Source: Escherichia coli (lineage in GTDB: Bacteria > Pseudomonadota > Gammaproteobacteria > Enterobacterales > Enterobacteriaceae). From it: DNA of 64,000 nt. This document shows positions 43,305 to 64,000 of the stretch, piece by piece; within the stretch, counting starts at the first letter, position 1, and the number at the start of each line of letters is the position of its first letter. The DNA is taken from NCBI RefSeq assembly GCF_017348835.2, contig NZ_CP071375.1; one strand, given 5' to 3'. The notes under the pieces were generated by a model. The model had not been told where the DNA came from. It searched no databases and saw nothing but the letters and a program-made list of their open reading frames with translations. A program made the translations under genes and the position numbers.

Positions 43305-44588
43305 TTACAGACTTCTGGAAGGTTGCGCAGCTCTTACAACACGCGGTTGATCTTCCGCGGCGTCTTCCAGCGCACTTAAATCACGGTCTTTCACTTCTGG
43401 CATTTTCAGCGCAGAGATTAAACCAATCACTGAATATGCCATGATCATAATGGCGATCGGATACCAGGATTCCGTCATGGTGCAGAAAATACCCGCCAGG
43501 ATAGGACCAAAACCGGAAGCGATAAGACCACCAATTTCTTTAGAAATAGCCATCCGGGTAAAGCGGTTTTTACAGCCGAACATTTCTGCCATGGTAATGT
43601 TTTCCAGAGCAAATAATCCCAGCACCGCACAGTTATGAATCACAATCAGTGCAACCATAATGGTGCTCGGGGCATAGCTTTTATCTACGATGATAGAAAG
43701 CATTGGCCATGCCAGCACAATCGCAGAGGTATTCATAATAATATACGGGATCCGGCGACCAATTTTATCGGATAACCAACCAAGGAACGGAATGGTCATA
43801 AAGCCGAGAATCGAACTGATCATCAATGCATCTGTTGGAATTGCTTTGTTAAACAATAACGTCTGTACTAAATAGCCTGCAAGGAAAGTCTGAATTAAAC
43901 CGGAGTTACCCGCCTGACCAAAACGCAGCCCTGTTGCCAGCCAGAAGGATTTGCTCTGGAACATGCTACCAGCAGGTGCAGGTTTTGCTGTCGGTTGGTT
44001 GCTGTCGTTAACCTTCTCAAAGACCGGGCTTTCTTTCAGATTCATACGCAACCAGATAGCAAAGACCATCACGACAACGCTCGCCAGGAACGGTATACGC
44101 CATCCCCACGCCAGCAGTTCCTCTTTACTGAGAATGAAGAACATAAAGGCCCAGATTGCCGTTGCGCTTAAGGTTCCGCAGTTAGTTCCCATAGCCACAA
44201 ATGAGGAGATAATTCCGCGCTTACCTTTTGGCGCATATTCCGCCAGCATCGTACCGGCACCGGAAATTTCCGCACCCGCACCCAACCCCTGAATAATACG
44301 CAGCGTCACCAGCAAGATGGGGGCAAAAACACCAATCTGTGCATAGGTCGGTAACACTCCAATTAAGGTGGTACAGATCCCCATCATGGTGATGGTAATA
44401 AAGAGCACTTTTTTACGCCCTATTCTGTCGCCCATTTTGCCGAAAATAAATGCTCCGACAATACGCGCCACATAACCTGCACCGCAGGTTCCCATTGCCA
44501 AAATTAACGCCATTGCCGTTGATGATTCAGGAAAAAATATTTCATGAAACACTAACGCAGCGCCGAGCGAATATAACTGGAAATCCAT
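43305..44588 (-). CDS. ydfJ: MFS metabolite:H+ symporter, probably N-terminally truncated at the prophage junction
   Basis: 427-aa ORF begins inside the first transmembrane region; the conserved GDRIGRK motif is close to the N-terminus. Confidence 0.7.
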   Translation of the reverse strand: MDFQLYSLGAALVFHEIFFPESSTAMALILAMGTCGAGYVARIVGAFIFGKMGDRIGRKKVLFITITMMGICTTLIGVLPTYAQIGVFAPILLVTLRIIQGLGAGAEISGAGTMLAEYAPKGKRGIISSFVAMGTNCGTLSATAIWAFMFFILSKEELLAWGWRIPFLASVVVMVFAIWLRMNLKESPVFEKVNDSNQPTAKPAPAGSMFQSKSFWLATGLRFGQAGNSGLIQTFLAGYLVQTLLFNKAIPTDALMISSILGFMTIPFLGWLSDKIGRRIPYIIMNTSAIVLAWPMLSIIVDKSYAPSTIMVALIVIHNCAVLGLFALENITMAEMFGCKNRFTRMAISKEIGGLIASGFGPILAGIFCTMTESWYPIAIMIMAYSVIGLISALKMPEVKDRDLSALEDAAEDQPRVVRAAQPSRSL

Positions 44589-45192
44589 AATTCACAGGTG
44601 TTTTTTCCCATCCTGTGGTTTCCTTGGCGTTTTCTAGGTTTTTTCAGATAGTTGCATTTTTTAAAAAGCATCCTAAGTTCGATCTCAGTGTCTATCTGGG
44701 GCCTATTTCTGTCCCATATATGCCCCAAAAAAAACTCCCCAACAGATAAGTAGTTTTTTCATGGATTTATGCGTAAAATCAAGAACGGCTGGAAATCATT
44801 CAATACTCACACTATCGAAAAATTTACCAGCCAACCGCAGCACGTTCTTGCATAAGGCGTGTCTGCGGTTTTTCAACTATTCAGATACATCACTCCCATC
44901 ACATTCATTCCTCCGCATCAAAGGCATATAGGCTATATCACCTTGATATTTTTATTTTTCAGATAAAAACTGTTATCTATGTATACTTTTAAACCCAATC
45001 CGTGTAGAGTCTCTGCATAAGATAGTTTGCAGTTGCCGCTTCAGCTTGCGCCATAAATCGCCTGATTTTTGCTGCCACCTGTTAGCATTCCTGTATACCT
45101 GAAACGACAATGTTTATCTACGAACTTTAAGAACACCCAAGATAAAAATTGTCAACTATATCATATATAACACATTACTAATTCGAGGCTAT

Positions 45193-45306
45193 ATGAACAG
45201 CATACTGATAATCACATCTCTCCTTATCATATTCAGCATTTTTAGTCATGCCCTAATAAAATTAGGGATTGGCATATCCAATAACCCAGACAAAACCGAT
45301 GTATAA
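45193..45306 (+). CDS. Hypothetical small hydrophobic protein (37 aa)
   Basis: [37 protein letters not shown]; one predicted TM helix; weak ribosome-binding site. Confidence 0.3.
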
Positions 45307-45374
45307 GTCAACATATCCTGAATCAGACATACAATATCGCAATGAAAATCAATAATATTTTAAGGAATATCTTC

Positions 45375-45608
45375 ATGAAATCAAAAGACACCCTAAAGTG
45401 GTTCCCTGCGCAGCTTCCTGAAGTAAGAATTATCCTAGGGGATGCTGTAGTGGAAGTAGCAAAACAGGGAAGACCTATCAATACCAGAACATTGCTTGAT
45501 TACATTGAAGGAAACATAAAGAAAAAATCATGGCTGGATAACAAAGAATTATTACAAACAGCGATATCAGTTCTTAAAGACAACCAAAATTTAAATGGTA
45601 AAATGTAA
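45375..45608 (+). CDS. ydfK: Prophage cold-shock-associated small protein
   Basis: ORF starting MKSKDTLKWFPAQLPEVRIILGD after AAGGAA. Confidence 0.75.
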   Translation: MKSKDTLKWFPAQLPEVRIILGDAVVEVAKQGRPINTRTLLDYIEGNIKKKSWLDNKELLQTAISVLKDNQNLNGKM

Positions 45609-45924
45609 TATAATAAACTTACTTTTTTATCATTTTTCCACTTTAACAACATTTTGCTCCACTTTTCCACGACCAAACAACTTGAAATCTGGTTAAAATA
45701 ACACGCAACACTATTCTTCTTCCTTGAGTCCGCCCGGAACTCGAAAAACAAACCGAGTTAAAGCCATTTTTCACAAAATCGATTTTGGGTCTCACCAAAA
45801 TTACGGGGTTGCATACGCATTCGTTTATTTTCGAACGTGTACATACAAATATGCACAAAAATAATCAAAATTATTTTCTGAGATGCATTATGATATGAAC
45901 ACCAATTTCGTATAGAGTCTCACT

Positions 45925-46515
45925 ATGTCTCGAATTTTTGCTTACTGTCGGATATCAACGCTGGATCAGACCACCGAAAATCAACGCCGGGAAATCGAAA
46001 GTGCAGGTTTTAAAATCAAACCTCAGCAAATAATCGAAGAACACATTAGCGGCTCAGCAGCAACCAGTGAGCGTCCTGGTTTTAACCGGTTGCTTGCTCG
46101 CCTGAAATGTGGTGATCAATTGATTGTGACAAAACTGGATCGCCTTGGTTGTAATGCAATGGATATCAGGAAAACAGTGGAACAACTGACCGAAACAGGT
46201 ATCAGAGTGCATTGCTTAGCATTGGGGGGCATTGACCTGACCAGTCCAACAGGAAAAATGACGATGCAAGTAATTTCAGCAGTCGCTGAATTTGAACGAG
46301 ACCTTTTACTTGAACGCACTCATTCCGGGATAGTAAGAGCCCGGGGCGCAGGGAAACGTTTTGGTCGACCACCTGTGTTAAATGAAGAACAGAAACAGGT
46401 GGTATTCGAACGAATTAAGTCAGGTGTAAGTATAAGTGCCATTGCCCGGGAATTCAAAACCTCGCGGCAAACCATTTTAAGAGCCAAAGCAAAACTTCAG
46501 ACACCTGACATATAA
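45925..46515 (+). CDS. pinQ: Serine recombinase (DNA invertase/resolvase family)
   Basis: 196-aa ORF with N-terminal catalytic motif YCRISTLDQ and C-terminal HTH. Confidence 0.8.
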
Positions 46516-46612
46516 AAAATAATCTCGGTGTGAGATGCTTTACGTCTTCCAAGCCACCTTCCTTGCCGTAAATGGAAAGATACATCTAATTATAGAATTT
46601 ATATGTTTTACC

Positions 46613-47188
46613 CTACGGCAGTGCTGGCCATTCAATATCCTGTGCAGTTGACGTATCAACACGGTTCAGCAATACCCGATACTTTTTCCATGCTTCCAGC
46701 AACGAGATTTCTTCCTCCGTTGCAATTTCCAGATCTGCAGCATCCTGAAGCGGCGCAATATGCTCACTGGCTACCTGCATCAGGCTGTTTTTTGTTTCTT
46801 CCGCCTCCCGGATCCGGAACAGTTTTTCTGCTTCCGTATCCTTCACCCAGGCTGTGCCGTTCCACTTCTGATATTCCCCTCCCGGCGATAACCAGGTAAC
46901 ATTTTCCGGTAACGGACCGAGTTCAGAAATAAATAACGCGTCGCCGGAAGCCACGTCATAAACCGTTTTACCCCGATGATCTTCAACGAGATGCCACGAT
47001 GCCTCATCACTGTTGAAAACAGCCACGAAGCCTGCCGGAATATCTGGCGGTGCAATATCGATACTGTTTGCTGGCAGACCTGTATGAGGCGGAATATATG
47101 CGTCACCTTCACCAATAAATTCATTAGTTCCGGCCAGCAGATTATAAATTTTTATGGTCCGTGGTTGTTCACTCATTCTGAATGCCAT
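46613..47188 (-). CDS. tfaQ: Tail fibre assembly protein
   Basis: 191-aa Tfa-like ORF directly downstream of the tail-fibre C-terminus. Confidence 0.8.
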
Positions 47189-48741
47189 TATGCAAGCCTC
47201 ACAATATAGTTAAATGCGATGTTTTTGACGGTGTTTTCCGCGTTACCAGCAGCGTTAACGGTGATGGTATGTCCATGTGAACCAATCGCAACGGAGTGCG
47301 TATGAGCACCAATACCGACAGTATGTGCGTGTGCACCTGCGCTTGCAGCAGTACCCGATACAGAGTGCGTATGAGCGCCTGCAGAAGAAGTGTTAACACT
47401 GTATTTAGAGTAATCAGGTGATCCACTTCCCGGAGCACCACTGGAACCACCTGAAACAAATGTCATCGAATGGGTATGTGCACCGGCTGAAGCAGCCGTA
47501 CCGCTAACACTATGGGTATGCGCACCAGTGTTATTCGTGGATTTAGTGCCGTAATCAAACGACGATGTGGTTTTCGTCCCCAAATCCGTACTGGATACGC
47601 TGGCGCTGTGGGTGTGTGATTTAATGCCGTCCTGTTCCTGAGACAATACGGCTCGATCACTGGCGGGCTTGCCCTTAATCGTCCAGCCACGCATATCCCC
47701 TTTCGTTTTCATCCAGTCTTTGACAATCTGCACCCAGGTGGTGAACGGGCTGTACGCTGTCCAGATGTGAAAGGTCACACTGTCAGGTGGCTCAATCTCT
47801 TCACCGGATGACGAAAACCAGAGAATGCCATCACGGGTCCAGATCCCGGTCTTTTCGCAGATATAACGGGCATCAGTAAAGTCCAGCTCCTGCTGGCGGA
47901 TGACGCAGGCATTATGCTCGCAGAGATAAAACACGCTGGAGGGGTCATCCGGCGTCCATTTGAGGCCAAACGGCGTCTCTTTGTCGCCAAATTTAAGATA
48001 CTGCTCCTCCCCGCAGTGCGGGCAGGCAACATGAAAACGCATAAAATGCGGGGATTCACTGGCTGCACGCTCAATCTGGCAGGTGCCTCTCACTTTGGGC
48101 GTGGAGCCACGGATGGACTTTGGCCAGACCGAGCCTTCAATACGTTTGTCGCCAAGGAACGTCGGAGAGCCTTCCTGTTCAATATCCTCATCAAAGGCAG
48201 CAAGTTCATCATAACCCGCCACATCCACCGACTTTTCACGGTAGTTTTTTGCCGCTTTACCGCCCAGGCACCAGAAGCCACGACCATTGGAAAAACGCTT
48301 CATAGTGAGCGTGTTATCCCGGTGCTTTTTGCCATACCACGGAGCCAGCGCCAGCAGCGACGGAATATCGCGGATGGTCGGCTCAACGTGGGTTTTCATA
48401 AAGTTCTCGGCATCACCATCCGTCGGCAACCAGATAAGTGTGTTGCGCTGCTTATGCTCTATAAAGTAGACATAAACACCCAGCAGCATTTTGGAATAAC
48501 CGACACGGGCAGACTTCACCACATTCACCTCACGGATGTAGTCGCTGCCCATCGCATTCATGATGGCCCGCTGAAAGGGCAGTGTTTCCCAGCGCCCTTC
48601 CTGGTATGCGGATTCTTTCGGGAGATAGTAATTAGCATCCGCCCATTCAACGGCGGTCTGTGGCTCCGGCCTGAACAGTGAGCGAAGCCCGGCGCGGACA
48701 AAATGCCGCAGCCTGTTAACCTGACTGTTCGATATATTCAC
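47188..48741 (-). pseudogene. stfQ: In-frame fusion: lambda gpA-like large terminase N-terminal ~350 aa (47694..48741) joined to a side tail fibre C-terminus (47188..47693)
   Basis: ORF starts [23 protein letters not shown]... (lambda A) to ...[10 protein letters not shown], then switches to His-rich tail-fibre sequence ([20 protein letters not shown]...). Confidence 0.8.
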
Positions 48742-49261
48742 TCAGCAACCCCGGTATCAGTTCATCCAGCGCGGCTGCTTTGTTCATGGCTTTGATGATA
48801 TCCCGTTTCAGGAAATCAACATGTCGGTTTTCCAGTTCCGGAAAACGCCGCTGCACCGACAGGGGGATCCCGTCGAGAATACTGGCAATTTCACCTGCGA
48901 TCCGCGACAGCACGAAAGTACAGAATGCGGTTTCCACCACTTCAGCGGAGTCTCTGGCATTTTTCAGTTCCTGTGCGTCGGCCTGCGCACGCGTAAGTCG
49001 ATGGCGTTCGTACTCAATAGTCCCTGGCTGGAGATCTGTCTCGCTGGCCTGCCGCAGTTCTTCAACTTCCCGGCGCAGCTTTTCGTTCTCAATTTCAGCA
49101 TCCCTTTCGGCATACCATCTTATAACGGCGGCAGAGTCATAAAGCACCTCATTACCCTTGCCACCGCCTCGCAGAACGGGCATTCCCTGTTCCTGCCAGT
49201 TCTGAATGGTACGGATACTCGCACCGAAAATGTCAGCCAGCTGCTTTTTGTTGACTTCCAT
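48716..49261 (-). CDS. nohA: Terminase small subunit (lambda Nu1 homologue)
   Basis: 181-aa [45 protein letters not shown]...; overlaps the A start as in lambda. Confidence 0.9.
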
Positions 49262-49450
49262 TGTTCATTCCACGGACAAAAACAGAGAAAGGAAACGACA
49301 GAGGCCAAAAAGCCCGTTTTCAGCACCTGTCGTTTCCTTTCTTTTCAGAGGGTATTTTAAATAAAAACATTAAGTTATGACGAAGAAGAACGGAAACGCC
49401 TTAAACCGGAAAATTTTCATAAATAGCGAAAACCCGCGAGGTCGCCGCCC
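49262..49450 (-). other. Lambda-type cos site: cosN 12-nt cohesive end at 49439..49450, cosB region between cosN and nohA
   Basis: Minus strand reads CCGACAGGTTACG-GGGCGGCGACCT-CGCGGGTTTTCGCTATTTATGAAAATTTTCCGGTTTAAGG, the lambda end junction, then a lambda-like region up to the Nu1 start. Confidence 0.85.
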
Positions 49451-49649
49451 CGTAACCTGTCGGATCACCGGAAAGGACCCGTAAAGTGATAATGATTATC
49501 ATCTACATATCACAACGTGCGTGGAGGCCATCAAACCACGTCAAATAATCAATTATGACGCAGGTATCGTATTAATTGATCTGCATCAACTTAACGTAAA
49601 AACAACTTCAGACAATACAAATCAGCGACACTGAATACAGGGCAACCTC

Positions 49650-49844
49650 ATGTCAACGAAGAACAGAACCCGCAGAACAACAACCCGCAACATCCGCTTT
49701 CCTAACCAAATGATTGAACAAATTAACATCGCTCTTGATCAAAAAGGGTCCGGGAATTTCTCAGCCTGGGTCATTGAAGCCTGCCGCCGGAGACTAACGT
49801 CAGAAAAGAGAGCATATACATCAATCCAGAGTGATGATGGATGA
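49650..49844 (+). CDS. Small prophage protein, YlcI/YnfO-like
   Basis: 64-aa basic ORF immediately beyond cos. Confidence 0.5.
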   Translation: MSTKNRTRRTTTRNIRFPNQMIEQINIALDQKGSGNFSAWVIEACRRRLTSEKRAYTSIQSDDG

Positions 49845-50094
49845 ACATCCCGGTTTCTTTACCTTCCCTCCCTCCCCGCACAGAACTGGCGAGCGTGAGG
49901 GACCAATATGTGAGCCATAAATGCCTTATCTTCAGAAATGCAGTTGGTATCCGAACAGGACGATATTGTAAATTCACCTAAATACGAGGCATTGCTGTAG
50001 TTGAATTGCAGTACTGTATTAGCCTGACAGTGACAGAATACGATATTGACTCTGTCACTTGTGAAATGGTCAGAATGGTTAGCAGTTATGGTGA

Positions 50095-50301
50095 TCAGTC
50101 AACCAACAGGGAATAATCCTTCGTATTCTTATCGTGCTTTACTAACGCGGCCTCAATTGCCCTGAATGCTTCCAGAGATACTTGATGTTCTATACATGCA
50201 ATTACAACATCCGGGTAACCCATCGAAATGGTGCTATTAAGCATAGTTTTTACACGAACCTGCTCCTGGGAGGGGGCATCAATGTATTGATCTTTATGCA
50301 T
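50095..50301 (-). CDS. Hypothetical prophage protein
   Basis: 68-aa ORF; function unknown. Confidence 0.4.
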
Positions 50302-50596
50302 TTTGTCGCTCCATTCGTTTGCTCTTCACTTGCGGCTAAAAATATAACGTCAAATCACTCAGCATGAAAGAGTGAAAGTTTCAGCGCGTTTCCCTTACAT
50401 AATCTGTCGTTTGTATTCTCTTCAGGCATACCGGAAAGACTAGGTATTGTCACACAACCAATACCATCGACAATCGAGATTTATATCTATTCGGTAATGT
50501 TTAAATATAACAAAACCCCGTAAAAACGAGGTTTATGGGTAATTTGTATTGTTGAATAGCATCTGATGAGAAATTGATGCTAATACTATAAACATG

Positions 50597-50770
50597 CTAG
50601 ATTAAATCAATCTTGATATCATAGCTTTCAAGACCAGTCATTTTTTCCCGTGCAGTAAACTGGATACTGGTAACTTCTTTCCCGGTCTTTTTCTTAAGCT
50701 CAATGATTTTTTTTGTTATATATTCAGAAATATCTGCTTCTGTTTTTGTTTTTAACTCTTCAATGTTCAT
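50597..50770 (-). CDS. gnsB: GnsA/GnsB-family protein
   Basis: 57-aa ORF MNIEELKTKTEADISEYITKKIIELKKKTGKEV...ESYDIKIDLI; GAGG ribosome-binding site. Confidence 0.7.
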   Translation of the reverse strand: MNIEELKTKTEADISEYITKKIIELKKKTGKEVTSIQFTAREKMTGLESYDIKIDLI

Positions 50771-50942
50771 CATTTCCTCTTTTAGTCTGTTATGACTGTC
50801 CTGGTACACAGTAGTGTCAATTATATGGAGCAAACGTATAAAAGATAAGATGAAACATCGCAATAATCAACATACGACGGTCTAAATTTCACACAAACAG
50901 ATAAAAATGATTATCATTTATTATCAATGCATTAGAATCAAA

Positions 50943-51173
50943 TCAATTCAAGAGTCTCATTGCTGCTTCCAGAATTTCTTCTGAAGTTACATGTCGATCC
51001 GCTGCTACATAAATGACTTTATGATCTCCGGTCAGAGATGGAAACCCTGCAGCCATTACAGTGAGGTGTGTTGTTTCGCCATTTGGATATTCACGCATGA
51101 TGGTGTTAACTCCGGTCATCACTGGCACTACCATTGCTGGTTCAGAGTTAAAAAAAACTATTATTTTTTTCAT
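50943..51173 (-). CDS. Small prophage protein (YnfN-like); start codon uncertain
   Basis: ORF 50943..51212 with several possible in-frame starts. Confidence 0.4.
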   Translation of the reverse strand: MKKIIVFFNSEPAMVVPVMTGVNTIMREYPNGETTHLTVMAAGFPSLTGDHKVIYVAADRHVTSEEILEAAMRLLN

Positions 51174-51444
51174 AATGTTACCGTAATATGTGAGTATCCA
51201 TCGACTAGACACTAAGCAAAAAAGCTCCCGAAGGAGCCTTCATTTTCACTTTCTTAAATCTAACGACAGATGGCTAACATTTAAGTATTGTGAAATATTA
51301 TCAAATGTAATCATCATTGATTTACAAAAGATACATTTTGCCCCGAAAGGATTTCTGTCAGAAACATCAAAAGATGATGTTCTATACTGAGAACCATGGC
51401 AACACGGGCATCTAAAGTGAATATGGTTTGTAATATTTTCTACC

Positions 51445-51657
51445 TCAAAGTGCCACTACATGAACAGCTGCAGGGCCTTTAGGTCCGTTCTCAATACCAA
51501 ATTCGACTTCCTGATTCTCAGTTAACGTTTTGAAATCGTTGCTCTGAATAGCTGAGAAATGCACAAACACATCTTTGCTACCATCTTTCGGCGTGATGAA
51601 ACCAAAACCTTTTTCAGGGTTAAACCATTTCACTAAACCAGTCATTTTGTTAGACAT
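51445..51657 (-). CDS. cspI: Cold-shock protein
   Basis: 70-aa cold-shock-domain ORF ([21 protein letters not shown]...). Confidence 0.9.
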
Positions 51658-52020
51658 CATTATTACCTTTTGAAGAAGTTAGCCCTTGGGCAGAATGGTC
51701 CGAAAAAAAATATCAGAGAGAAAAACCAACAAGGAAATCTCAAGAGGTACAAATAATAAAATTATAACAATGACTGCTTCAGATAATTTTGTAACAAACC
51801 AGAACACCATTAACGCATGATTAACCAACCATAGCAAGGATTACTTTTGTAAAGAAAAACACACGAATGAAACAATAGCTTTATTTATTAATAAAACGTG
51901 TCATTCTGTCTAATGACCTTTTATCTTACCCTTAAGATTTCAAGGATTTTGACTCATGGAAGAGTCCTTTTTATTTAAATTTCACATTCAGCGCTAAAAA
52001 TAATCCGATTTAATATTAAT

Positions 52021-53050
<1,030 letters not shown>

Positions 53051-53163
53051 GGATATTTATCAGGATTTATCGGCTTCAAATCCCCGGATATGTTAAATCT
53101 TACCTCACCAGTGATGGGCACTGGCGGGAGGAGGATGTCAATCTGATAAACACAGAGGTGACT

Positions 53164-53424
53164 ATGGATTACACAAATCTACCAAAACAAACTTTTGCTG
53201 ATTTAATCGCACTCAGGCAAGCAGTCGTAGCTCTAATCAACTTGTTGCCGGAGAAGGAAAAGGAATTAGTTAAAGCGCTTCTTAACAGAACTGCCGCCGA
53301 TTTTTCATCATATCCACTGACAGATGACCTTGCGGACCTTCCTGAATTAATTGCAGCGTCCGCCATTAAGCTTACTGAAGAGATTTACCCTCCTCAAAAA
53401 TCTTCACAAAATTCCTGCGAGTAA
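53164..53424 (+). CDS. Hypothetical acidic protein on the opposite strand inside the lysis cassette
   Basis: 86-aa ORF from ATG at 53164, preceded by AGAGG at 53153-53157; helical acidic sequence; no homologue recognised. Confidence 0.4.
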   Translation: MDYTNLPKQTFADLIALRQAVVALINLLPEKEKELVKALLNRTAADFSSYPLTDDLADLPELIAASAIKLTEEIYPPQKSSQNSCE

Positions 53425-53923
53425 CTTCAATGCAATAATCGTAAAACGCCGCAAACTGCTCATCGCGGCGTTTTTTTTCATCTTCAGAAGGAATCAGCAC
53501 CGACAATTTTTTATTCAGATCAGCGACGCTGCCCTCCAGTTTTTCAATGGGCGATTCAATATCATCTTTTTCTGACCGCAATGCCGTCGGTGGCGTCTTC
53601 AGAGAACCAGTAATTCTTCCCGGTAGCTTTCCTTTGTAGGTTATCCACACATTCTGCGCCTCTAAAATTATGGGGCGCTTTTCCGGCGACTGCTCATCCC
53701 CTTCACATAACCCGGCAGCAACATCCAGGAAGACCTGTCTGATGCTCATTCTGGCTGCTGCCTCATAAAACTCCAGCGCGGCACCTTCAACACGGTCCAG
53801 CGAGATGTCCAGGTCAAAAATTTCACCGTCAAAGCGTTCTTTGTCCTGTAATGCTAAAGTTACCGTAACTTTATTCTCAAAATTGCGGATCCCTTTCACA
53901 ATCAGTTCATAGTTTTGAGTCAT
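53372..53923 (-). CDS. Prophage protein between holin and endolysin (YdfR-like position)
   Basis: 183-aa ORF; same position as K-12 ydfR, but that gene is recalled as shorter. Confidence 0.5.
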   Translation of the reverse strand: MTQNYELIVKGIRNFENKVTVTLALQDKERFDGEIFDLDISLDRVEGAALEFYEAAARMSIRQVFLDVAAGLCEGDEQSPEKRPIILEAQNVWITYKGKLPGRITGSLKTPPTALRSEKDDIESPIEKLEGSVADLNKKLSVLIPSEDEKKRRDEQFAAFYDYCIEVTRRNFVKIFEEGKSLQ

Positions 53924-53927
53924 TGAA

Positions 53928-54143
53928 TTACTCTCCTCTCGCAGCCTTACGCCTGTCTTCTTTAATCTTGAAATAAAGATTTGTCAGATACGTCAGCAGG
54001 CCAAAAACCAGGCTACCCAGCACACCGATTGCAGCCCACTGTGACGGAGTTACTTTATCGAGTAACTGCAATGCCCAGAAACCAGCATTACCCGCCGATG
54101 TGCCATAGGCAACACCTGTTGTTAACTTATCCATTGATTTCAT
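53928..54143 (-). CDS. essQ: Holin (phage-21 S-type pinholin-like)
   Basis: [71 protein letters not shown]; two TM helices and a charged C-terminus. Confidence 0.85.
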
Positions 54144-54363
54144 ATCCTCACCCCGATGTACACGGATGGTGCAATATGTTTGAAAAGATCGGAGTCTACG
54201 GGGTAGTTTTGACAGCACACGTTGTTCTCAACGGCGCTAAAGAAACATACACATTAAAAATGTGAGTAATTATTTTTTAAAGAAAGTCATATATAAAATA
54301 ATAATACGAGAAATGTTTTCATATTTAGTGTACTGTATACGGCCATTTATACAGGAAAAGCCT

Positions 54364-54534
54364 ATGTCAGAACGTAAAGACTCAAAATCACGCCGTAATT
54401 ATCTCGTTAAATGTTCCTGCCCAAACTGCACCCAAGAGTCAGAACACAGTTTTTCAAGAGTACAAAAAGGTGCCCTTTTGATCTGCCCTCATTGCAACAA
54501 AGTATTCCAGACAAATCTTAAAGCTGTAGCCTGA
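54364..54534 (+). CDS. Small zinc-ribbon protein (56 aa, two CxxC pairs)
   Basis: MSERKDSKSRRNYLVKCSCPNCTQESEHSFSRVQKGALLICPHCNKVFQTNLKAVA; ribosome-binding site AGGAAAAG. Confidence 0.55.
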   Translation: MSERKDSKSRRNYLVKCSCPNCTQESEHSFSRVQKGALLICPHCNKVFQTNLKAVA

Positions 54535-54593
54535 TTGATTTTATTAGTAACAAGTATTTTTTATATTTTAATAATATATTTAAAGCAGATAAT

Positions 54594-54617
54594 AAAAAAC
54601 CCGCCTGAGCGGGTTTG
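54594..54617. terminator. Bidirectional intrinsic terminator
   Basis: A-run + CCCGC-ctga-GCGGG + ttt. Confidence 0.7.
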
Positions 54618-54897
54618 AGATTGTGGTGCTTTTTGTGGGAGTCATCCACTTACGCACTTTGTTTTGCCATGCCAGCAGTTAGCTTCTGCTGTAAAACTAT
54701 TCATGCAGCAAACCTGCACTTCACCACAATGGTTAGCATACTTTTCCTGATTAAGATTTTGCCAAATATGCTGGCCATTGTTTCATGTATTGGACCTCCT
54801 TAATTTTCATTAAAGAGATCCAATATTCACTACTCTGTCCGTATCTCTACTCAGGCATCAGCCTTCTTCGTTATCGTATACAGACGAGCGATGAATT

Positions 54898-55113
54898 TTA
54901 ATCAGTAATGATGACATTTGCTGCTGCAGGACCTTTAGCACCACTCTCTATAGAGAAGGTAACCTTTTGACCTTCAAATAAGGTTCGATAATTATCATTC
55001 TGAATCGCAGAAAAATGCACAAACACATCTTTACTACCATCAACAGGAGAAATAAAGCCGAAACCTTTATCAGCGTTAAACCATTTTACTAAACCAGTCA
55101 TTTTATTTGACAT
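54898..55113 (-). CDS. cspB: Cold-shock protein
   Basis: 71-aa cold-shock-domain ORF. Confidence 0.9.
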
Positions 55114-55411
55114 TCTACATTCCTTAACTTGAGCCTTTCGGCATAAATGGTTTGCATAACAGAAACGACTTCGTACTTAATTGGAGAGACTCAAAGAAGG
55201 AATAAGTGAATAACACCTGAAATGAGAACTGCTTTAGTAAACTACTTCGTATATCGTCTGTTCTTCAAACCGACGCAGTCATTAACTCATAGTTGAACAT
55301 ATGAAGCAATGTTTATTTTAGACATCCAGCCACCTTCAACCCTATCAAAAAAGTAGTTTTCTCCAGGAACGTGTGTATGGTGCACCAGGTTATCAGTATT
55401 AAGGAGTTTTT

Positions 55412-55625
55412 CTGTCCCCTAAAATGACAGGAATTGTCAAAAACTTTGACTACAAAAGCAGCAAAGGTCTTATATTCCCATCCGATGGCGTATCGATGCC
55501 CAGCTTCACGTTTCAGCTCTCAATCTTCGAGATGCAGAAGAAATTACCACAGGATTACGCGTGGAATTTTGCCGGATAAATGGTTCGCGTGGACCTTCAA
55601 CTGCCAATGTTTATCCCGGGATGAG
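55412..55625 (+). pseudogene. cspF: cspF/cspH-like cold-shock gene with a frameshift
   Basis: N-terminal MTGIVKNFD...PSDG is in one frame; the rest ([42 protein letters not shown]) is in another frame that runs on to 55950. Confidence 0.45.
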
Positions 55626-55656
55626 ATTCAATATCTCTATTGCCCCATTTAAAGCA

Positions 55657-55690
55657 CAAAAACCCGCTTATAAGCGGGTTTTCTACTTTT
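55657..55690 (+). terminator. Intrinsic terminator
   Basis: aaaaa-CCCGC-ttataa-GCGGG-tttt. Confidence 0.7.
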
Positions 55691-55788
55691 TTCTAAACGT
55701 CGGATACACAAAGCCCATCGTTGAGAAAATCTTATCCATGTTTTTTGAAAAATGCAAACATCATGTCGCCATCTTCAGCAAAAATCAT

Positions 55789-56513
55789 TTATCTCGTCAC
55801 CTTCCTCAATTGCGCTTCCGCGTATGCTTCTTCCTGCCAGCACTTTGTTACCAGTTTACCAATGACGTCAGCATACCCCTTATACCACTGATAATCGGTC
55901 AGGTCTGGTACCAGCTTCTGGACATGACGTCGTGCCAGCGTGGTCGGTAAACGACTAAACCGGTTTCCATTACAACGCCCACAAATCTTATATACCGGTA
56001 CGCCATGAAACCGGGTTCTTTTTTCATCCAGAACAATCCCTTTACCCTTACACCCTCTGCACGCTGTGCTGACTTCGCCCTTACCATGGCAATGCTGACA
56101 TAGTTCCTTTACCCATTCTTCCTTGATTACAGATTCCCCGCGTCTGTAGTGTTTCACCACTTCGCGCAATACATTATAAAATCCCGTACCTGAACAATGC
56201 TCACAGCGAGCCTTACTTGCCGCAGACCTAGAGTAATCAGCAAAGGCAAAATTCACGAGGTAAGGAATAATCTGTAACCGGATTTCTTCACTCAATTTGT
56301 TCAATGTCGGGTTATCCAGTGCCATCGCGTAATTTAGCAGGCCTTCAATCGCAAACTGAGGGTCCTGAACACCAACTTTTGCCAGAAATAAGGCCAACCC
56401 AAGTGGTGCTTTCGACTGCACCATCCCCTGCGCTGCCATTACATCCGTAATTGTTAAACAACCGGTGCCTGTCGCTGGAGCGTCATCGCTCAATTTTGGA
56501 GATTTTGGGGAGT
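55789..56513 (-). CDS. quuQ: Late-gene antiterminator Q-like protein with four CxxCxGxG zinc motifs; 5' end removed by IS629
   Basis: 234-aa ORF starts at TTG 20 bp from the IS end; frame is open right up to the IS boundary at 56514. Sits upstream of the cold-shock morons and lysis genes. Confidence 0.6.
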
Positions 56514-56555
56514 TGAACCGCCCCGGGTTTCCTGGAGAGTGTTTTATCTGTGAAC

Positions 56556-57443
56556 TCAGGCTGCCAGATCATTATTTCCGATGGAAGCATAATAAGCTTT
56601 TTCTGCTTCTGCCGGAGGAATATGGCCCAGCCTTTCCAGCAATCGTCGATTGTTATACCAGTCCACCCACGTTAGTGTGGCCAGTTCCACTTCTGTCCGG
56701 TTTTTCCAGCTCTTACGGTGTATTACCTCCGCTTTGTAAAGACCATTGATGCTCTCAGCCATCGCGTTGTCATACGAGTCGCCAGTACTCCCTGTTGATG
56801 CCAGTAATCCGGCTTCCTTAAGCCGCTGCGTGTAGGCCAGCGATACATACTGAGAACCTTTATCACTGTGATGGATTGTGCCGGACGGCCGACGGGCCCA
56901 CAACGCCTGCTCCAGTGCATCCAGCACGAATGTTGTTTCCATGGATGATGAGACCTGCCATCCCACGATGTATCCGGCGAACACATCAATGATGAACGCC
57001 ACATAAACGAAGCCCTGCCATGTGCTTACCCAGGTAAAATCAGCCACCCACAACTGGTCTGGACGTTCTGCCACGAACTGACGGTTTACGCGGTCGCATG
57101 CGGCAACGGCTTTCCGGCTGACGGTAGTGCGGACCTTTTTACCCCGGAGAACACCGGCAAGTCCCATAACTGCCATGAGACGTGCCACAGTGCATCTGGC
57201 CACTCTGATACCTTCCCGTAACAACTGACGCCAGACTTTACGCACACCGTATACCTGGTGATTTTCATCGTATACGCGCTGTATCTCTTTCTTCAGCCAG
57301 TCATCGTGCTGCGCACGGGCACTGCGTTTATCCGGATGATGTCGCTGTTGCTGACAATGGTAATACGTTGACGGGGCAATATGCAGTTCGCTGCATACCG
57401 GTCCGACCCCGTACTGCTCACGCAGCTTATCCAGCAGTGGCAT
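56556..57443 (-). CDS. IS629-like transposase OrfB (DDE); expected to be made as an OrfAB fusion by -1 frameshift
   Basis: 295-aa ORF; A-rich slippery stretch (GGAAAAAATAATG) at the orfA/orfB overlap. Confidence 0.9.
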   Translation of the reverse strand: MPLLDKLREQYGVGPVCSELHIAPSTYYHCQQQRHHPDKRSARAQHDDWLKKEIQRVYDENHQVYGVRKVWRQLLREGIRVARCTVARLMAVMGLAGVLRGKKVRTTVSRKAVAACDRVNRQFVAERPDQLWVADFTWVSTWQGFVYVAFIIDVFAGYIVGWQVSSSMETTFVLDALEQALWARRPSGTIHHSDKGSQYVSLAYTQRLKEAGLLASTGSTGDSYDNAMAESINGLYKAEVIHRKSWKNRTEVELATLTWVDWYNNRRLLERLGHIPPAEAEKAYYASIGNNDLAA

Positions 57444-57769
57444 TATTTTTTCCAGAGGCGGTCGAACTCCGCCTTCGCAAAATAAGCGGAAGCCTGGCGA
57501 AGGATATCGTTACTGCGGCGCAGTTCACGATTTTCACGTTCCAGCTCTTTCAGACGCTGACGTTCAGCGGTGGTGAGTCCACCATCACCACTCCCGGTAT
57601 CCCGCTCATGCTGGCGAACCCAGACACGCAGAGTCTCCGGCGTACAGCCAATCTTTGGGGCAATGGAACAAATTGCCGCCCACTGTGAGTCATATTCATC
57701 CTGACTTTCCAGAACCATACGAATCGCCCGCTGACGGACTTCGGGGGAAAAACGAGTATTTTTAGTCAT
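57443..57769 (-). CDS. IS629-like transposase OrfA
   Basis: 108-aa ORF identical to 4167..4493. Confidence 0.9.
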
Positions 57770-57874
57770 CCTGTTTACCTCTTTCTCAGGGAGTTTAGTC
57801 TCCAGGATTTCCGGGGCGGTTCATTAAAGATTTTTTTGTGCATGCCGATAGTGCTTTTTTAAAAGGAGAAATCT

Positions 57875-58207
57875 ATGTCTGTCACAATTCAGGGAAATAC
57901 CTCAACCGTTATTTCAAACAACTCCGCCCCGGAAGGAACATCAGAAATAGCCAAAATCACAAGACAAATTCAGGTGCTGACTGAAAAGCTTGGGAAAATC
58001 TCATCGGAAGAGGGGATGACGACACAGCAGAAAAAAGAAATGGCTGCATTGGTACAGAAGCAAATTGAAAGCCTCAGGGCTCAACTGGAGCAGTTGTTAA
58101 GGCAGCAGGCAGAGAAAAAGAATGAAGACGCGACAGTTCAGCCTGATAAAAAAGAAGAGAAAAAAGACGATACAAATACCGCTGGCACCATTGATATTTA
58201 CGTCTAA
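57875..58207 (+). CDS. flxA: Prophage protein FlxA
   Basis: 110-aa ORF MSVTIQGNTSTVISNNSAPEGTSEIAKITRQIQVLTEKLG... with ribosome-binding site. Confidence 0.7.
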   Translation: MSVTIQGNTSTVISNNSAPEGTSEIAKITRQIQVLTEKLGKISSEEGMTTQQKKEMAALVQKQIESLRAQLEQLLRQQAEKKNEDATVQPDKKEEKKDDTNTAGTIDIYV

Positions 58208-58221
58208 GTGACAGCCGTATT

Positions 58222-58245
58222 GTGGCCCTCATCGGGCCACTTTTC
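58222..58245 (+). terminator. Intrinsic terminator after flxA
   Basis: GTGGCCC-tcatc-GGGCCAC-ttttc. Confidence 0.75.
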
Positions 58246-58643
58246 GCCATCAGCCTTTTCTTTAAAGACATATTATCTTTGTATCATTTCTGATAGTTAA
58301 CATTACAAGATATAAGTAATGGACGCACTCCCAATTAGTCTATTTAAATCGCCACGAGTTTAACTGACAACCCATGATCAATTATGAATTGCAACTATTT
58401 CTGTAGTCACTTTTGTGGGGACAGTCCACAAAACTGCCAACTTCCGCTTCTTGCTCTTAGCGGACATTAGCATAGGCTATTTACCATAACGCCTCATTAC
58501 GCGCACCGCCCAGACTGACTCAGCGCGTTTCTGGCATATCCCCGGTAAAACAAGTAACAAACCACCCGAAAATGAACACCAGAAACGCGACTTAAGAATC
58601 TACCCTATGAATGGATATGCACTCAACCGAATCGATCTTGGTT

Positions 58644-59985
58644 TCAATCTTTTTTATCGGGATCAGGCTTCTTTTTAGGTAACTTCGGGGGCTTAACTTG
58701 CTGATGACTTTGCGTTCGGCGCGTAAGCCAGGGATGGTCAGCTTTAGGTTTAACATAGTATTTTGAGCGTAAATCAATACGGGCATTATCCACTCGTTCA
58801 TGGACACTCTTTTCATCATCCAGTGGTATAGGCTCCGGGCCATCAACATACTTTTCCCAGCCCAGCGCTTTCCCGTCATACAGAACGTTAATTTCACCGT
58901 CAAAGTTCTCGCATACAGTAACAACCGAATGCCTAAGTCGATATCCCCGGCCCTCACTGCGTACCTGAAACGCACTGCTTTTGTACTGGAAAGTGAGATT
59001 TTTAGACAGAACGCGCTTCGCCTGTAGGCTGAAGATATAACCCAGTTCCTCTTCAGAATGGTGCACATCAAGATGAGCATTATCAGTAGTACGAGGCGAC
59101 GTAGCGAACCGGTTGTTATAGGCTTCAATAAAGGTCGGCAACCATGCATTTGCTGTTTCAATATCACTGATATTCTGAAGCCGCATTTCTTTGACCAGCC
59201 TGTCCTGTAGTGTCTGATTGGCGCGCTCTACCCGCCCTTTTGCCTGCGGGCTGTTGGCATGGATTGGCTCGATGCCCAGTGTCTTTATCGCACGAGTGAA
59301 CTGGGTCAGCTCACCTTCCCGCTCTGGGTTATTTACCCTGAATATACTGTGTCTATCAGAGTAGAGAGCGAGCGGTACGCCATGATCATTAAGGTAACCC
59401 CGGAGGGTTTCCATGTAAGCCCGGGTTGTTTCAGCAGGCACAAAACGCAACGCCATCAACGCACTGGTGGCATCATCAATGAAAACGATCAGTGTACATC
59501 TGGGGCCTCGATTTTCAAACCAGTCATGAGGTGAGCCATCAATCTGGATCAGTTCACCGTAAGATGGTCGTCGCATGCGGCGTTGATATATACGGGCAAT
59601 TTTACGACGGCGTTCACGCCATACCCCCCTCTTCTATCATCCACTTTCTGAGAGTTTCAACGGATAAAGATAAACCGTGTATCTCGCGCAATTTTTCGCA
59701 CGCAAACGTAGGTCCAAAATCAGCGTAACGGCCTTTGAGGAGTGAAATTACTGTTGCTCTGAATTCAGTAGAAAAGGAATTATTAGGACGCTTTCCACGT
59801 CGGTGGGAAACCAGACCAGAAGGCCCTTCATTTCTATACCGTTGCACCAGACGTTTAACCTGCCGAATAGAAATGCCAATGCGTGCCGCAGCTTGTTCCT
59901 GAGTAATATGTCGATTAATTGACTCCTGAATAATCTGAAGTCGGTGGAGTTCCTTATGACTCATCGTAACAGTTTCTTTGGTCAT
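58644..59985 (-). pseudogene. HTH + DDE (integrase-core) transposase split into two frames (IS481/ISNCY-like)
   Basis: N-terminal HTH ORF 59614..59985 and DDE ORF 58644..59576 are in different frames; a C7 run sits at the junction (59625-59631). Confidence 0.6.
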
Positions 59986-60319
59986 GAAAAATCCCCCAGA
60001 GAATTGTCTGGGGACATTTTAGAATGGTTCAAAGGGGACATTACAGCTTGGTGTTAACAATAGCCTGCTTCTCCTTGCCTTTCGGCACGTAAGAGGCTAA
60101 CCTACATGTGTCTGGCATGAAATTGGCCTCAGATTAATGTTAAGCGTCTTGCAGGACGCGTAATGTTAACTGGGGCTTTTCTCTACCTGCCGTTGGTGTT
60201 CGTGCCCGAGGCAGATAGCCTCAAGCACCCGCAGTCATTCTACTTAACTAAGATTTCCCCGCAAACCGTTTTTGTCCAGCACAGTAAATATCCAACTAAA
60301 CCAATGGAGTTCGCTGTAT

Positions 60320-60499
60320 TTACCGCCAGTATTCAATGCACATGACCGCCATGAACACCCCTAAAAAAAGGGCATTTATATATCCAAATATTAATATCAA
60401 AACATCAACTTTTTCCATATACCTTGCTGTGAAGATGATGGGCATACATGATGCGAACAACCAGAACGCAACAAACAAAAACTGCAATGCGTTTTTCAT
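60320..60499 (-). CDS. Hypothetical small membrane protein (59 aa, two predicted TM helices)
   Basis: ATG at 60499 four nt after a perfect AGGAGG; MKNALQFLFVAFWLFASCMPIIFTARYMEKVDVLILIFGYINALFLGVFMAVMCIEYWR. Confidence 0.5.
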   Translation of the reverse strand: MKNALQFLFVAFWLFASCMPIIFTARYMEKVDVLILIFGYINALFLGVFMAVMCIEYWR

Positions 60500-61651
60500 T
60501 ATTCCTCCTACAATCAATGTGCAATTACATTTAAACACACCTCAATTTGGCCGGACATATAAATATCTAAACCAGAAAAAATCACTTACATAGCGTTACA
60601 AACTCTTTAGTCTAAAGGTTCATCGTAAAACATTCCCCATACTTATCAGTCCGTTCCGCGCCAGGTAGCTCATTGCCTTATCTGGCAACCTGTAATCAGG
60701 TTTCCGCTTTTTCAGTTGGCTGGTCGTTTAACCGACATAGTTAACCCATTAATCTAGTTGCCGGATGTTGGTGGATTTTCGCGTTTTAGTTGTTCATAAA
60801 AGTGCACAGCTTTAACCAATTCTTCTGATGTAACCGGGACTGGTGAGGCAGTGAATAAGGCCTGAATTTGATAGTTCGGCCTGTCGTTACAATCCTCTTT
60901 TTTCGGTACATATTTCCAGTCACCAGACCACTACTTCCCCTGAAAGTCCGTAACGCCTTTTTTCACGTAGCGATATCGCCATGTCACTGGTTTTGCTTGC
61001 CCCGCCGTTTCATGCCCTTCCTGATAATTAATCTCGCTCATTCATCGCCCCACTCATCACAATATGCTTCGACCGGAGTTTTTCCCGCTTCATAGTCATC
61101 ACGCTAGGATTCGACATCAGCAGCACTTCCACCGCGTAACTCACCATAGTCCATTAATAGTTCATCCCGCTCTTCAAAACTGATGTTATATTTAGCTGAA
61201 CAAAAATCAGCCACTTTGTTCTTCCTCATCGTCTTTTATTTCGTGGTATGAGTAATTGCAGTAGTTAAAGAAAATTTCTTATGCTCCGTCATGAATTTCA
61301 TCAGGTGTTGCGTCATCGTCCACTTCGAATACATCCTCAAAATCTCCACCAGCTATTCCCGTTTCAATAATAATTTTGAACTTTCGCATTTCACTACCGC
61401 CCTTTCGGGCGGCCTCCTGATGTTCTGAGGGTGCAGAAATCCATCCGGTTAAGGATTAAGTTTTATTTACAGAACTGAATTTAATTATTCAGATATACGT
61501 ATCTGTAACCTTACGAATCTACTCACTGGATGCCTCTTTCATAAAAATAATCCAGTGGGTTTTATCGTTTTTTCCCTGTTCGTTGACAGATAACAGGCTT
61601 TCTATCTGTCAGTGCCAGAATCTGGCTTACCGGTATTTGCGTTTCATTCCA

Positions 61652-62008
61652 TTAAAAAATCAGAACGCCGTGCGGCCTCAACACCCGAAAAGCTTCTTTA
61701 AATCTCTGTCGCAAATCATCACGCCAGGCATCTTTATTCAGCCGTCCATATTTCTTTCCCATCCAGGCGTTATCACCAACACGCTCAAGATGCGGAGGGT
61801 CTAATACAACCATCGAAAAAGATGCGTCTGCAAATGATAATGCACGAAAATCTGCGATAATGTCAGGGCTGATAATCAAGCGTCTCCCATTGCGTAATGT
61901 GTATCCTTCTTTTCTGATATCGCTAAATATCGCCCGTTCGTCAGACTTATCGAACCAGAACATGCGGCTGCCACAGCACATATCAAGAATGGTTGCCGGT
62001 GCACTCAC
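61652..62008 (-). pseudogene. DNA methyltransferase fragment (motif I, DPPH motif IV; C-terminus missing)
   Basis: 118-aa ORF from GTG: DMCCGSRMF, VVLDPPHL, RVLRPHGVLIF, then stops abruptly. Confidence 0.5.
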
Positions 62009-62535
62009 TGCGCCACGTCCTGAAAATTACCCTGATAGAAAGCCAGTATGCGCTGCATAACTTCGCTCTTCCGGCACTCGCGACAGATTATGTTTAGGCG
62101 ACTGTCGTAGCGACGTATTTCTCCGTCAGGTGATGACCAGATAAGGTCCGGATCAACCACAGCAGGTTTCTTCACCTTTGCCCTCGAGAGTTTTTTGCGG
62201 GCGTTTTGCCAGTCCTTACGCGCCTGTTCAGAGGGGAATAACCCGTATCTGATATCCCAAAAAATGAAACCGCACCGGAAGCTGAACCATCTGTAGAGCG
62301 TGAGGGGCCGTTCTATTTCCTCTTCGCAGATAAGGACGGAGAAAAATACGGTCGCGCAAACAAACTTTCTGGTCTGGATAAGGCACTGGCTGCTGGCGCC
62401 ACTGAAATCACAAAAGAAGAATATTTTGCCCGAAAAAATGGCACATACACGGGCTTACCGCAAAATGTAGATACCGCTGAAGATTCAGAACAACCAGAGC
62501 CGATAAAAGTTACCGCTGACGAAGTAAACAAAATT

Positions 62536-63615
62536 ATGCAGGCAGCCAATATCAGCCAGCCTGACGCCGATAAGTTGCTTGCTGCATCACGTGGTGAATT
62601 TGTTGAAGGGATTAGTGACCCGAATGATCCGAAATGGGTTAAGGGGATCCAGACCCGCGATTCTGTGAACCAGAACCAGCATGAATCGGAACGGAACTAC
62701 CAAAAAGCGGAACAAAACAGCCCAAATGCGTTACAAAACGAGCCAGAAACGAAACAGCCTGAATCAGTGGCGCAACAGGAAGTGGAAAAAGTCTGCACCG
62801 CCTGCGGTCAGACCGGCGGCGGCAACTGCCCTGATTGTGGCGCGGTGATGGGCGACGCAACATACCAAGAAACATTCGATGAAGAGTATCAGGTTGAAGT
62901 TCAGGAAGATGATCCGGAGGAAATGGAAGGCGCTGAACATCCACACAAGGAGAACGCTGGCGGCAATCAGCATCACGATAGCGATAATGAAACTGGCGAG
63001 ACGGCAGATCACTCAATTAAGGTGAACGGTCATCACGAAATCACATCCACCAGCAGGACGTGTGACCATCTAATGATCGACCTTGAAACCATGGGAAAAA
63101 ATCCTGATGCCCCGATCATCTCAATAGGTGCAATATTTTTCGATCCGCAAACCGGAGATATGGGACCGGAATTTAGTAAGACTATCGATCTGGAAACTGC
63201 TGGCGGAGTCATTGATCGGGACACCATTAAATGGTGGCTTAAGCAATCACGCGAAGCGCAATCGGCCATTATGACCGATGAAATCCCGTTAGATGATGCA
63301 CTGTTACAATTGCGGGAATTTATCGACGAAAACTCCGGTGAATTTTTTGTTCAGGTTTGGGGAAATGGAGCCAACTTCGACAACACGATTTTGCGCCGTT
63401 CATACGAACGGCAGGGGATCCCCTGCCCGTGGCGTTACTACAACGATCGCGATGTACGCACAATCGTTGAGCTGGGGAAAGCCATAGACTTCGATGCCAG
63501 AACGGCTATTCCATTCGAAGGTGAGCGCCATAATGCACTTGATGACGCCCGTTACCAGGCAAAATACGTTTCAGTTATCTGGCAAAAACTGATCCCGAGT
63601 CAGGCTGATTCTTAA
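62536..63615 (+). CDS. Prophage protein with zinc ribbon and C-terminal DEDD (DnaQ-like) 3'-5' exonuclease domain
   Basis: 359-aa [19 protein letters not shown] zinc ribbon; exonuclease motifs [25 protein letters not shown]. The frame is open upstream to 62242 without a start codon. Confidence 0.7.
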
Positions 63616-63687
63616 TGTTCAACTGTCGCCGGTTGTGACTGGTATTCTGCAACCGGCGCTCGTCTGATGTAAGAGATAAAGAAATCG

Positions 63688-63939
63688 ATGAGCGAAGTAA
63701 TCATGATTGTCTCTCCCGGCAAATGGGTATCCGAAGAGCAGTTAATTGCGCTGAAAGGAATAAAAAAAGGTACGTTAAAAAAGGCCCGGGAAAAATCGTT
63801 TATGGAAGGAAGGGAATATAAGCATGTCGCTCATGACGGTATGCCATGGGATAACAGTCCATGCTTTTACAACCTGGAAGAAATTGATCGCTGGATTGAG
63901 CGCCAGGCATCAGCAAGACCAAGACGTCATCTTACTTGA
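63688..63939 (+). CDS. Excisionase-like small DNA-binding protein
   Basis: 83-aa basic ORF immediately upstream of the integrase start. Confidence 0.5.
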   Translation: MSEVIMIVSPGKWVSEEQLIALKGIKKGTLKKAREKSFMEGREYKHVAHDGMPWDNSPCFYNLEEIDRWIERQASARPRRHLT

Positions 63940-63974
63940 CTAAAAGCCACACTAACTAATGAGAGAAGTTGAAA

Positions 63975-64000
63975 TGAAATATCCGACAGGCGTGGAAAAC
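63975..64000 (+). CDS. Start of a tyrosine integrase gene (IntR-like N-terminus MKYPTGVEN...), truncated by window end
   Basis: ATG at 63975 followed by MKYPTGVEN, resembling the N-terminus of Rac-type integrases; only 9 codons are in the window. Confidence 0.4.

Follow-up and report, generated by a model that had tools for sequence, protein, structure and literature searches.

A lambdoid-phage accessory gene in a Qin-type prophage of Escherichia coli is very probably a pseudogene with three lesions

We analyzed an interrupted reading frame on the minus strand of a 64,000-nucleotide stretch of Escherichia coli DNA (contig NZ_CP071375.1; the window, for short). The frame is very probably the non-functional remnant of a small accessory gene of lambdoid phages, a member of the phrog_660 family lying in the nin-type region of a Qin-type prophage. 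The whole pseudogene occupies 60620-61041 (minus strand), an extent given both by PGAP and by the alignment of its repaired translation to the intact relative P0038. In the window the gene is disabled three times, by two amber codons and a 4-nt deletion, and the most that could be made from it would be a 36-residue fragment that ends inside an N-terminal beta module.

The interrupted frame and its lesions

From the ATG at 61039-61041, a start shared with intact homologues (MSEINYQEGHE...), the minus strand encodes 36 sense codons (MSEINYQEGHETAGQAKPVTWRYRYVKKGVTDFQGK) followed by a TAG at 60931-60933, an amber at codon 37 (hereafter TAG1). In the program-made list of open reading frames (ORFs), this 36-codon piece alone is listed as an ORF. 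Past TAG1 a further 58 sense codons are read in the same frame (WSGDWKY...ENPPTSGN) up to a second TAG at 60754-60756 (hereafter TAG2). An earlier sequence-only reading had reported the frame from 61041 to 60754, and its coordinates, strand and translation are exact. Its description of a single in-frame TAG is correct inside 60754-61041; the whole gene, down to 60620, has two further lesions. One of them is TAG2, which had been taken for the natural stop and is a second premature amber: the codon is CAG in strain AST205, which reads through this position as ...NQINGLTMPVKRP, and both P0038 and the 171-aa form of the protein have Q there.

The other is a 4-nt deletion with its junction at 60722-60723 (minus strand), where a DNA alignment shows TGGT in the intact 171-aa allele L016. 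The deletion is a net -1 frameshift, because of which frame 0 ends at a TGA at 60712-60714. Frame-1 translation of 60620-60721 (minus strand) yields what is left of the conserved C-terminal module, now out of frame: SQLKKRKPDYRLPDKAMSYLARNGLISMGNVLR followed by a stop. This remnant can be aligned with the C-termini of both P0038 and L016, hits phrog_924 and phrog_8171 at their C-terminal ends, and stops at the TGA at 60620-60622, which is the ancestral gene end according to the intact 141-aa and 171-aa relatives. The C-terminal module is still present in the window, as two damaged pieces. With the three lesions masked, the translation aligns to all 141 residues of P0038 with no gap (77% identity, E = 8e-83), and the ancestral product, as judged from these alignments, was probably about 141 aa long. 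Such a product would have consisted of an N-terminal beta module (AWRYRYVKKGVTD...W.GDWKYVPTKEDCNDRP.YEIQALF) and helical modules after it. In strains IAI1, PE164, CREC-629 and AST240, PGAP annotates a pseudogene corresponding to window 60620-61041 with the note 'hypothetical protein; frameshifted; internal stop'; it covers exactly this interval, and the feature is therefore already annotated.

Intact relatives

The joined 95-aa sequence matches phrog_660 over residues 2-93 with E = 5.2e-28, and intact P0038 matches the same family with E = 3.8e-52. The first of these matches runs in one stretch across TAG1. The comparisons that had been proposed point the same way: tblastn of the joined sequence against phage genomes gives one-piece alignments over the stop in several phages, and intact relatives among prophages have a sense codon at TAG1. 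Homologues cross the TAG and both halves are conserved, and the reading of this locus as a nonsense-inactivated phage gene therefore stands. Intact homologues are 104, 119, 128, 138, 141, 155 or 171 aa long, with Q, P or L in place of TAG1. Examples are the 119-aa protein of vB_EcoS-689R5 (URC08893.1), which reads ...DFQGKQWVGDWKY... at the stop position, the 119-aa protein of vB_Apl-pPE4 and the 155-aa protein of mEp460_4F5, both with P, and the 128-aa protein of Av-05 with L.

The codon at 60931-60933 was also read directly from a DNA alignment of 17 copies. It is CAG in 689R5 and strain 131, CCG in pPE4, mEp460 and strain 190693, CTG in strain RIVM_C037166 and Av-05, and TTG in strain AST205; every copy at least 95% identical to the window has TAG. 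A separate comparison shows TGG at this codon in Shigella dysenteriae. The 171-aa protein WP_163510520.1 of strain 190693 continues after ENPP with an optional module, VETGAWKDAVDWVLREACCAAILGKADNPP, and then with ASGNQVSELTMWVKRLVSQLKKAQPDCKLPEKAIDYLKRNGLISVEDVLR. This optional 32-aa module (VETGAWKDAVDWVL...) is absent from the window copy and from intact P0038 too. We regard its absence as a natural variant and not as a lesion, because the intact 141-aa protein also does without it.

The gene belongs to a cassette whose order, a DUF7167 gene, a 58-aa gene of the phrog_519 family and then the phrog_660-family gene, is kept across phages and prophages (640R1, 689R5, pPE4, CFT073, strains 190693 and 131, and S. 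dysenteriae). The phrog_660-family gene always comes after the other two, and the cassette is placed in the nin-type region in some cases and among ea22 and eaA genes in others.

Protein family and predicted structure

An exhaustive HMMER search recovered 458 cluster representatives at E <= 0.001. The protein is a mosaic of three separable modules (approximately residues 15-64, 60-115 and 108-171) that recur in proteins of many lengths, in some relatives fused to Ead/Ea22-like or DUF551 domains. Neither the joined sequence nor the intact homologues have a match in Pfam (six intact homologues searched) or NCBIfam, a sequence search of the PDB returned designed proteins and noise only, and all matching PHROGs families are labelled 'unknown function'. 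The 171-aa intact form was modelled with AlphaFold2 from a 60-sequence alignment, and the model is of only moderate overall quality (mean pLDDT 73, pTM 0.37). Residues 20-62 form a small beta module predicted with confidence, after which come helices. The pLDDT is 88-94 at residues 20-60. TAG1 falls inside this N-terminal module and would cut the predicted fold after its first hairpin. We infer that the intact gene is a dispensable, 'moron-like' accessory gene of lambdoid phages.

The prophage around the locus

According to the annotation of close relatives, the locus lies in the Qin-type cryptic prophage of E. coli between ydfJ and rspB, a prophage rich in pseudogenes and IS elements. The Qin gene set at this place comprises ydfK, pinQ, tfaQ, nohA, cspI, cspB, cspF, essD and ydfT (annotation of strain PE164). 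Across the 87% of window 44000-64000 that aligns, strain PE164 is 100% identical to the window, and 514 complete E. coli records contain a 1001-base stretch around the pseudogene at no less than 99% identity; the identity is 100% in many, among them IAI1, which has the same prophage with relBE, hokD, dicA and dicB.

The pseudogene has the same strand as the rightward early operon. Replication-region genes (DUF977/LygF and a SAM methyltransferase) lie upstream of it, and hok/sok, ydfU and the Q-like antiterminator ydfT lie downstream. This places it in the nin-type region, and it can be called delayed early in the sense of this location between the replication genes and ydfT. IAI1 still has the immunity and replication genes dicA, dicC, a ydaT-like gene and an O-like gene, together with dicB; all five are deleted in the window and in PE164. 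The stretch holding the methyltransferase and DUF977/LygF genes (61652-62175, minus strand) is decayed: the SAM-dependent methyltransferase is a pseudogene with a frameshift plus an internal stop, and of DUF977/LygF only the last 56 codons (62005-62175) are left. This remnant abuts a 5'-truncated fragment of a 3'-5' exonuclease on the opposite strand; the region that goes with the exonuclease fragment spans 62536-63615 (plus strand). The early promoter of the operon has presumably been lost too, since the immunity and replication region of the prophage is gone.

The start codon of the pseudogene and the TGA that ends the 58-aa gene before it are merged in an ATGA. Such an overlap is an arrangement typical of translational coupling. 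The upstream gene of this 58-aa type (phrog_519 family, 61038-61229, minus strand) has an in-frame TAG at 61104-61106, a codon that is TGG (W) in CFT073 and in phage 640R1. Upstream of it, the DUF7167 gene (61207-61389, minus strand) carries a TAA at 61279-61281, which is AAA (K) in CFT073, and PGAP notes an 'internal stop'. Because the DUF7167 gene is ochre-cut as well, three consecutive small genes each have a nonsense mutation. In the window the pseudogene is probably not expressed at all, and the amber in the translationally coupled gene upstream is a further ground for expecting this.

On the other side of the pseudogene, a sok antitoxin RNA (RF01794) is found at 60059-60230 (minus strand) as a full-length Rfam match (99.8 bits, E = 2e-22). 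It directly adjoins an ISEsa1-like IS at 58644-59985, and the hok/sok module looks as if it is disrupted or flanked by the IS. An ORF at 60320-60538 (minus strand; 59 or 72 codons) encodes a strongly hydrophobic sequence, MKNALQFLFVAFWLFASCMPIIFTARYMEKVDVLILIFGYINALFLGVFMAVMCIEYWR, which is conserved in phage 640R1 apart from one change; this ORF has no PHROG match and no PGAP annotation. Two phage records annotate instead an 85-aa ORF on the opposite strand, one of them as 'hornerin', which looks spurious. A terminator-like hairpin lies at 60687-60712 (plus strand; AACCTGTAATCAGGTT then TCCGCTTTTT), antisense to the 3' part of the pseudogene. Terminator-like sites in the region number 6, versus 1.9 expected from shuffles, and a promoter scan was at background (4 found versus 3.7 expected).

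Spread and origin of the first amber

TAG1 is old and widespread: a 55-mer centered on its T, for which every 28-base seed must include that T, hits 1158 of the 5426 complete E. coli genomes. Some homologue of the 461-base locus occurs in 1918 complete E. coli genomes, so the amber allele makes up about 60% of the genomes with any homologue (1158/1918). In CFT073, TAG1 is found in a largely intact Qin-like prophage at a different integration site, next to potC, and it is also found in the phage genome records vB_EcoS-640R1, vB_EcoS-813R8 and PhiR42_1. A plasmid collection contained a few incidental copies only. The broken allele would have spread by vertical descent of Qin combined with recombination or movement among Qin-like prophages, presumably because the gene is dispensable. 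Neutral hitch-hiking of this kind would explain how common the amber allele is.

CAG, TTG and TGG are each one substitution away from TAG. The first amber may have arisen from CAG by a single C to T change, and TTG or TGG are also possible precursors. The TGG of S. dysenteriae was considered as a guide to the ancestral codon and set aside, since this allele bears a derived AA insertion; for the same reason its TGG may be a back-mutation. In this S. dysenteriae copy (CP026836.1; L020, 1501-1959), TGG replaces the amber and the AA frameshift insertion is kept. Because of this combination, gene callers report a 152-aa 'bacteriophage protein' from an out-of-frame internal ATG (MAISLRE...), which is an annotation artefact on a partly reverted pseudogene.

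Mode of evolution

By a Nei-Gojobori count over codons 17-91, pN/pS is 1.02 among 7 TAG1 copies versus 0.25 among 7 intact copies, values computed from non-independent pairs and without a tree. This contrast, from a small sample of sequences, is what a pseudogene predicts. Over codons 1-92, the TAG1 lineage shows 12 nonsynonymous against 3 synonymous substitutions, without an excess at third positions. Further damage has accumulated in TAG1 sub-lineages: AA has been inserted into the A-run at codon 26-27 in CFT073, 640R1 and 98218, strain 2018-10-1CC has 1-nt deletions, and a 57-nt deletion and IS truncations also occur. A +1 frame ORF of 45 aa at 60786-60923, which falls within an 85-aa annotation in 640R1, was examined as a possible product and rejected: it is basic and of low complexity and is created by the AA insertion only.

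Alternative explanations

The abundance of the amber allele raises the question of whether inactivation was selected, that is, whether the intact product harms the lysogen (for example by being toxic if leaky) and its knockout was favored, not merely tolerated. Most carriers of the locus indeed have TAG1, two different integration sites and sequenced phage genomes harbor it, and nonsense mutations are also present in three adjacent small genes and in the methyltransferase gene. We nevertheless consider selected inactivation unlikely. Intact alleles are common too and under purifying selection, so the protein is not generally harmful; vertical inheritance of Qin within large E. coli clades is alone enough to yield high counts; and 4-5 stops per approximately 1.4 kb of a dead region that has diverged by about 5% are, by an informal estimate, not clearly above neutral decay. 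It is distinctly unlikely that the spread of the amber allele reflects either selection against the intact protein in lysogens or trace-level UAG readthrough, the latter of which may concern a highly variable loop position in alleles without later lesions.

Two further readings would leave the gene with a product. The 36-codon ORF at 61041-60931 could be a working micro-protein to which the downstream part is irrelevant; it retains its start codon, and gene callers list it as a 36-aa hypothetical protein in several genomes, E. coli W/KO11 among them. Against this, all 6 of the 6 amber-lineage changes in codons 1-36 are nonsynonymous (I4V, H10Y, G14E, P18T, T20A and G35E), the 2-nt insertion of CFT073, 640R1 and 98218 and the 1-nt deletions of 2018-10 lie inside the ORF, the product would stop within the predicted beta module, after one hairpin, and the translationally coupled gene upstream itself ends early in the window; we therefore hold a functional short gene to be very unlikely. 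Recoding, in which UAG readthrough or a suppressor tRNA would give full-length protein at a low, regulated level, could draw on the conservation of the TAG in more than 1000 genomes and on the high variability of its position among intact homologues (Q, P, L, M, R, S, A and W), because of which almost any inserted residue should be tolerated. It is largely refuted by the downstream lesions, namely a second in-frame TAG and a 4-nt frameshift later in the same gene; evolution past TAG1 is neutral, with extra frameshifts in sub-lineages; and the site has neither an RNA family nor notable structure. ARAGORN found no tRNA gene in the 64-kb window, and Rfam searched over 58000-64000 with E up to 1 gave nothing over the gene, the sok RNA outside the gene being the sole match. 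We regard recoding as extremely improbable. That the interruption is a sequencing or assembly error, or the frame a chance non-coding one, has a negligible probability: the identical sequence in hundreds of independently sequenced complete genomes excludes an artefact, and strong protein homology is found on both sides of the stop.

Comparison with known systems

The value of this analysis is a correct annotation of the locus: its true extent of 60620-61041, its three lesions and the premature nature of the supposed natural stop. It also shows one broken phage accessory allele to be common to more than 1000 E. coli genomes and to sequenced phage genomes, and provides a small, clean example of how a pseudogene travels with and between lambdoid prophages.

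The same locus is a PGAP pseudogene in IAI1 (ECIAI1_RS25525), PE164 (LZG51_RS12760) and CREC-629 (CU080_RS28245). Identity to the window over the 461 bases of 60600-61060 is 100% for IAI1 and PE164 and 99.1% for CREC-629. These RefSeq/PGAP entries give neither the lesion sites nor the intact form, both of which are added here. The intact form is represented by the phrog_660 members URC08893.1 (119 aa), WP_163510520.1 (171 aa) and P0038 (141 aa). They share with the window copy the MSEINYQEGHE start, AWRYRYVKKGVTD, W.GDWKYVP.KEDCNDRP.Y.IQALF and LVKAV.FYEQ.KRENPP, as well as the same place after the DUF7167 gene and the 58-aa phrog_519 gene; the window copy differs from them by its two ambers and its 4-nt deletion. 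Ead/Ea22-like (PF13935) and DUF551 (PF04448) proteins, which are neighbors and fusion partners in relatives, are a different family, and the window sequence and the intact unfused homologues match neither model.

Gene decay in Qin, Rac, e14 and other cryptic prophages of E. coli has been reviewed (PMC6379469, PMC3105296). The setting is the same, a lambdoid prophage that is defective and whose dispensable genes have been hit by IS insertions, deletions and nonsense or frameshift mutations, and there is no difference in kind: the window locus is one more example, an ordinary pseudogene of a decaying prophage that RefSeq had already flagged.
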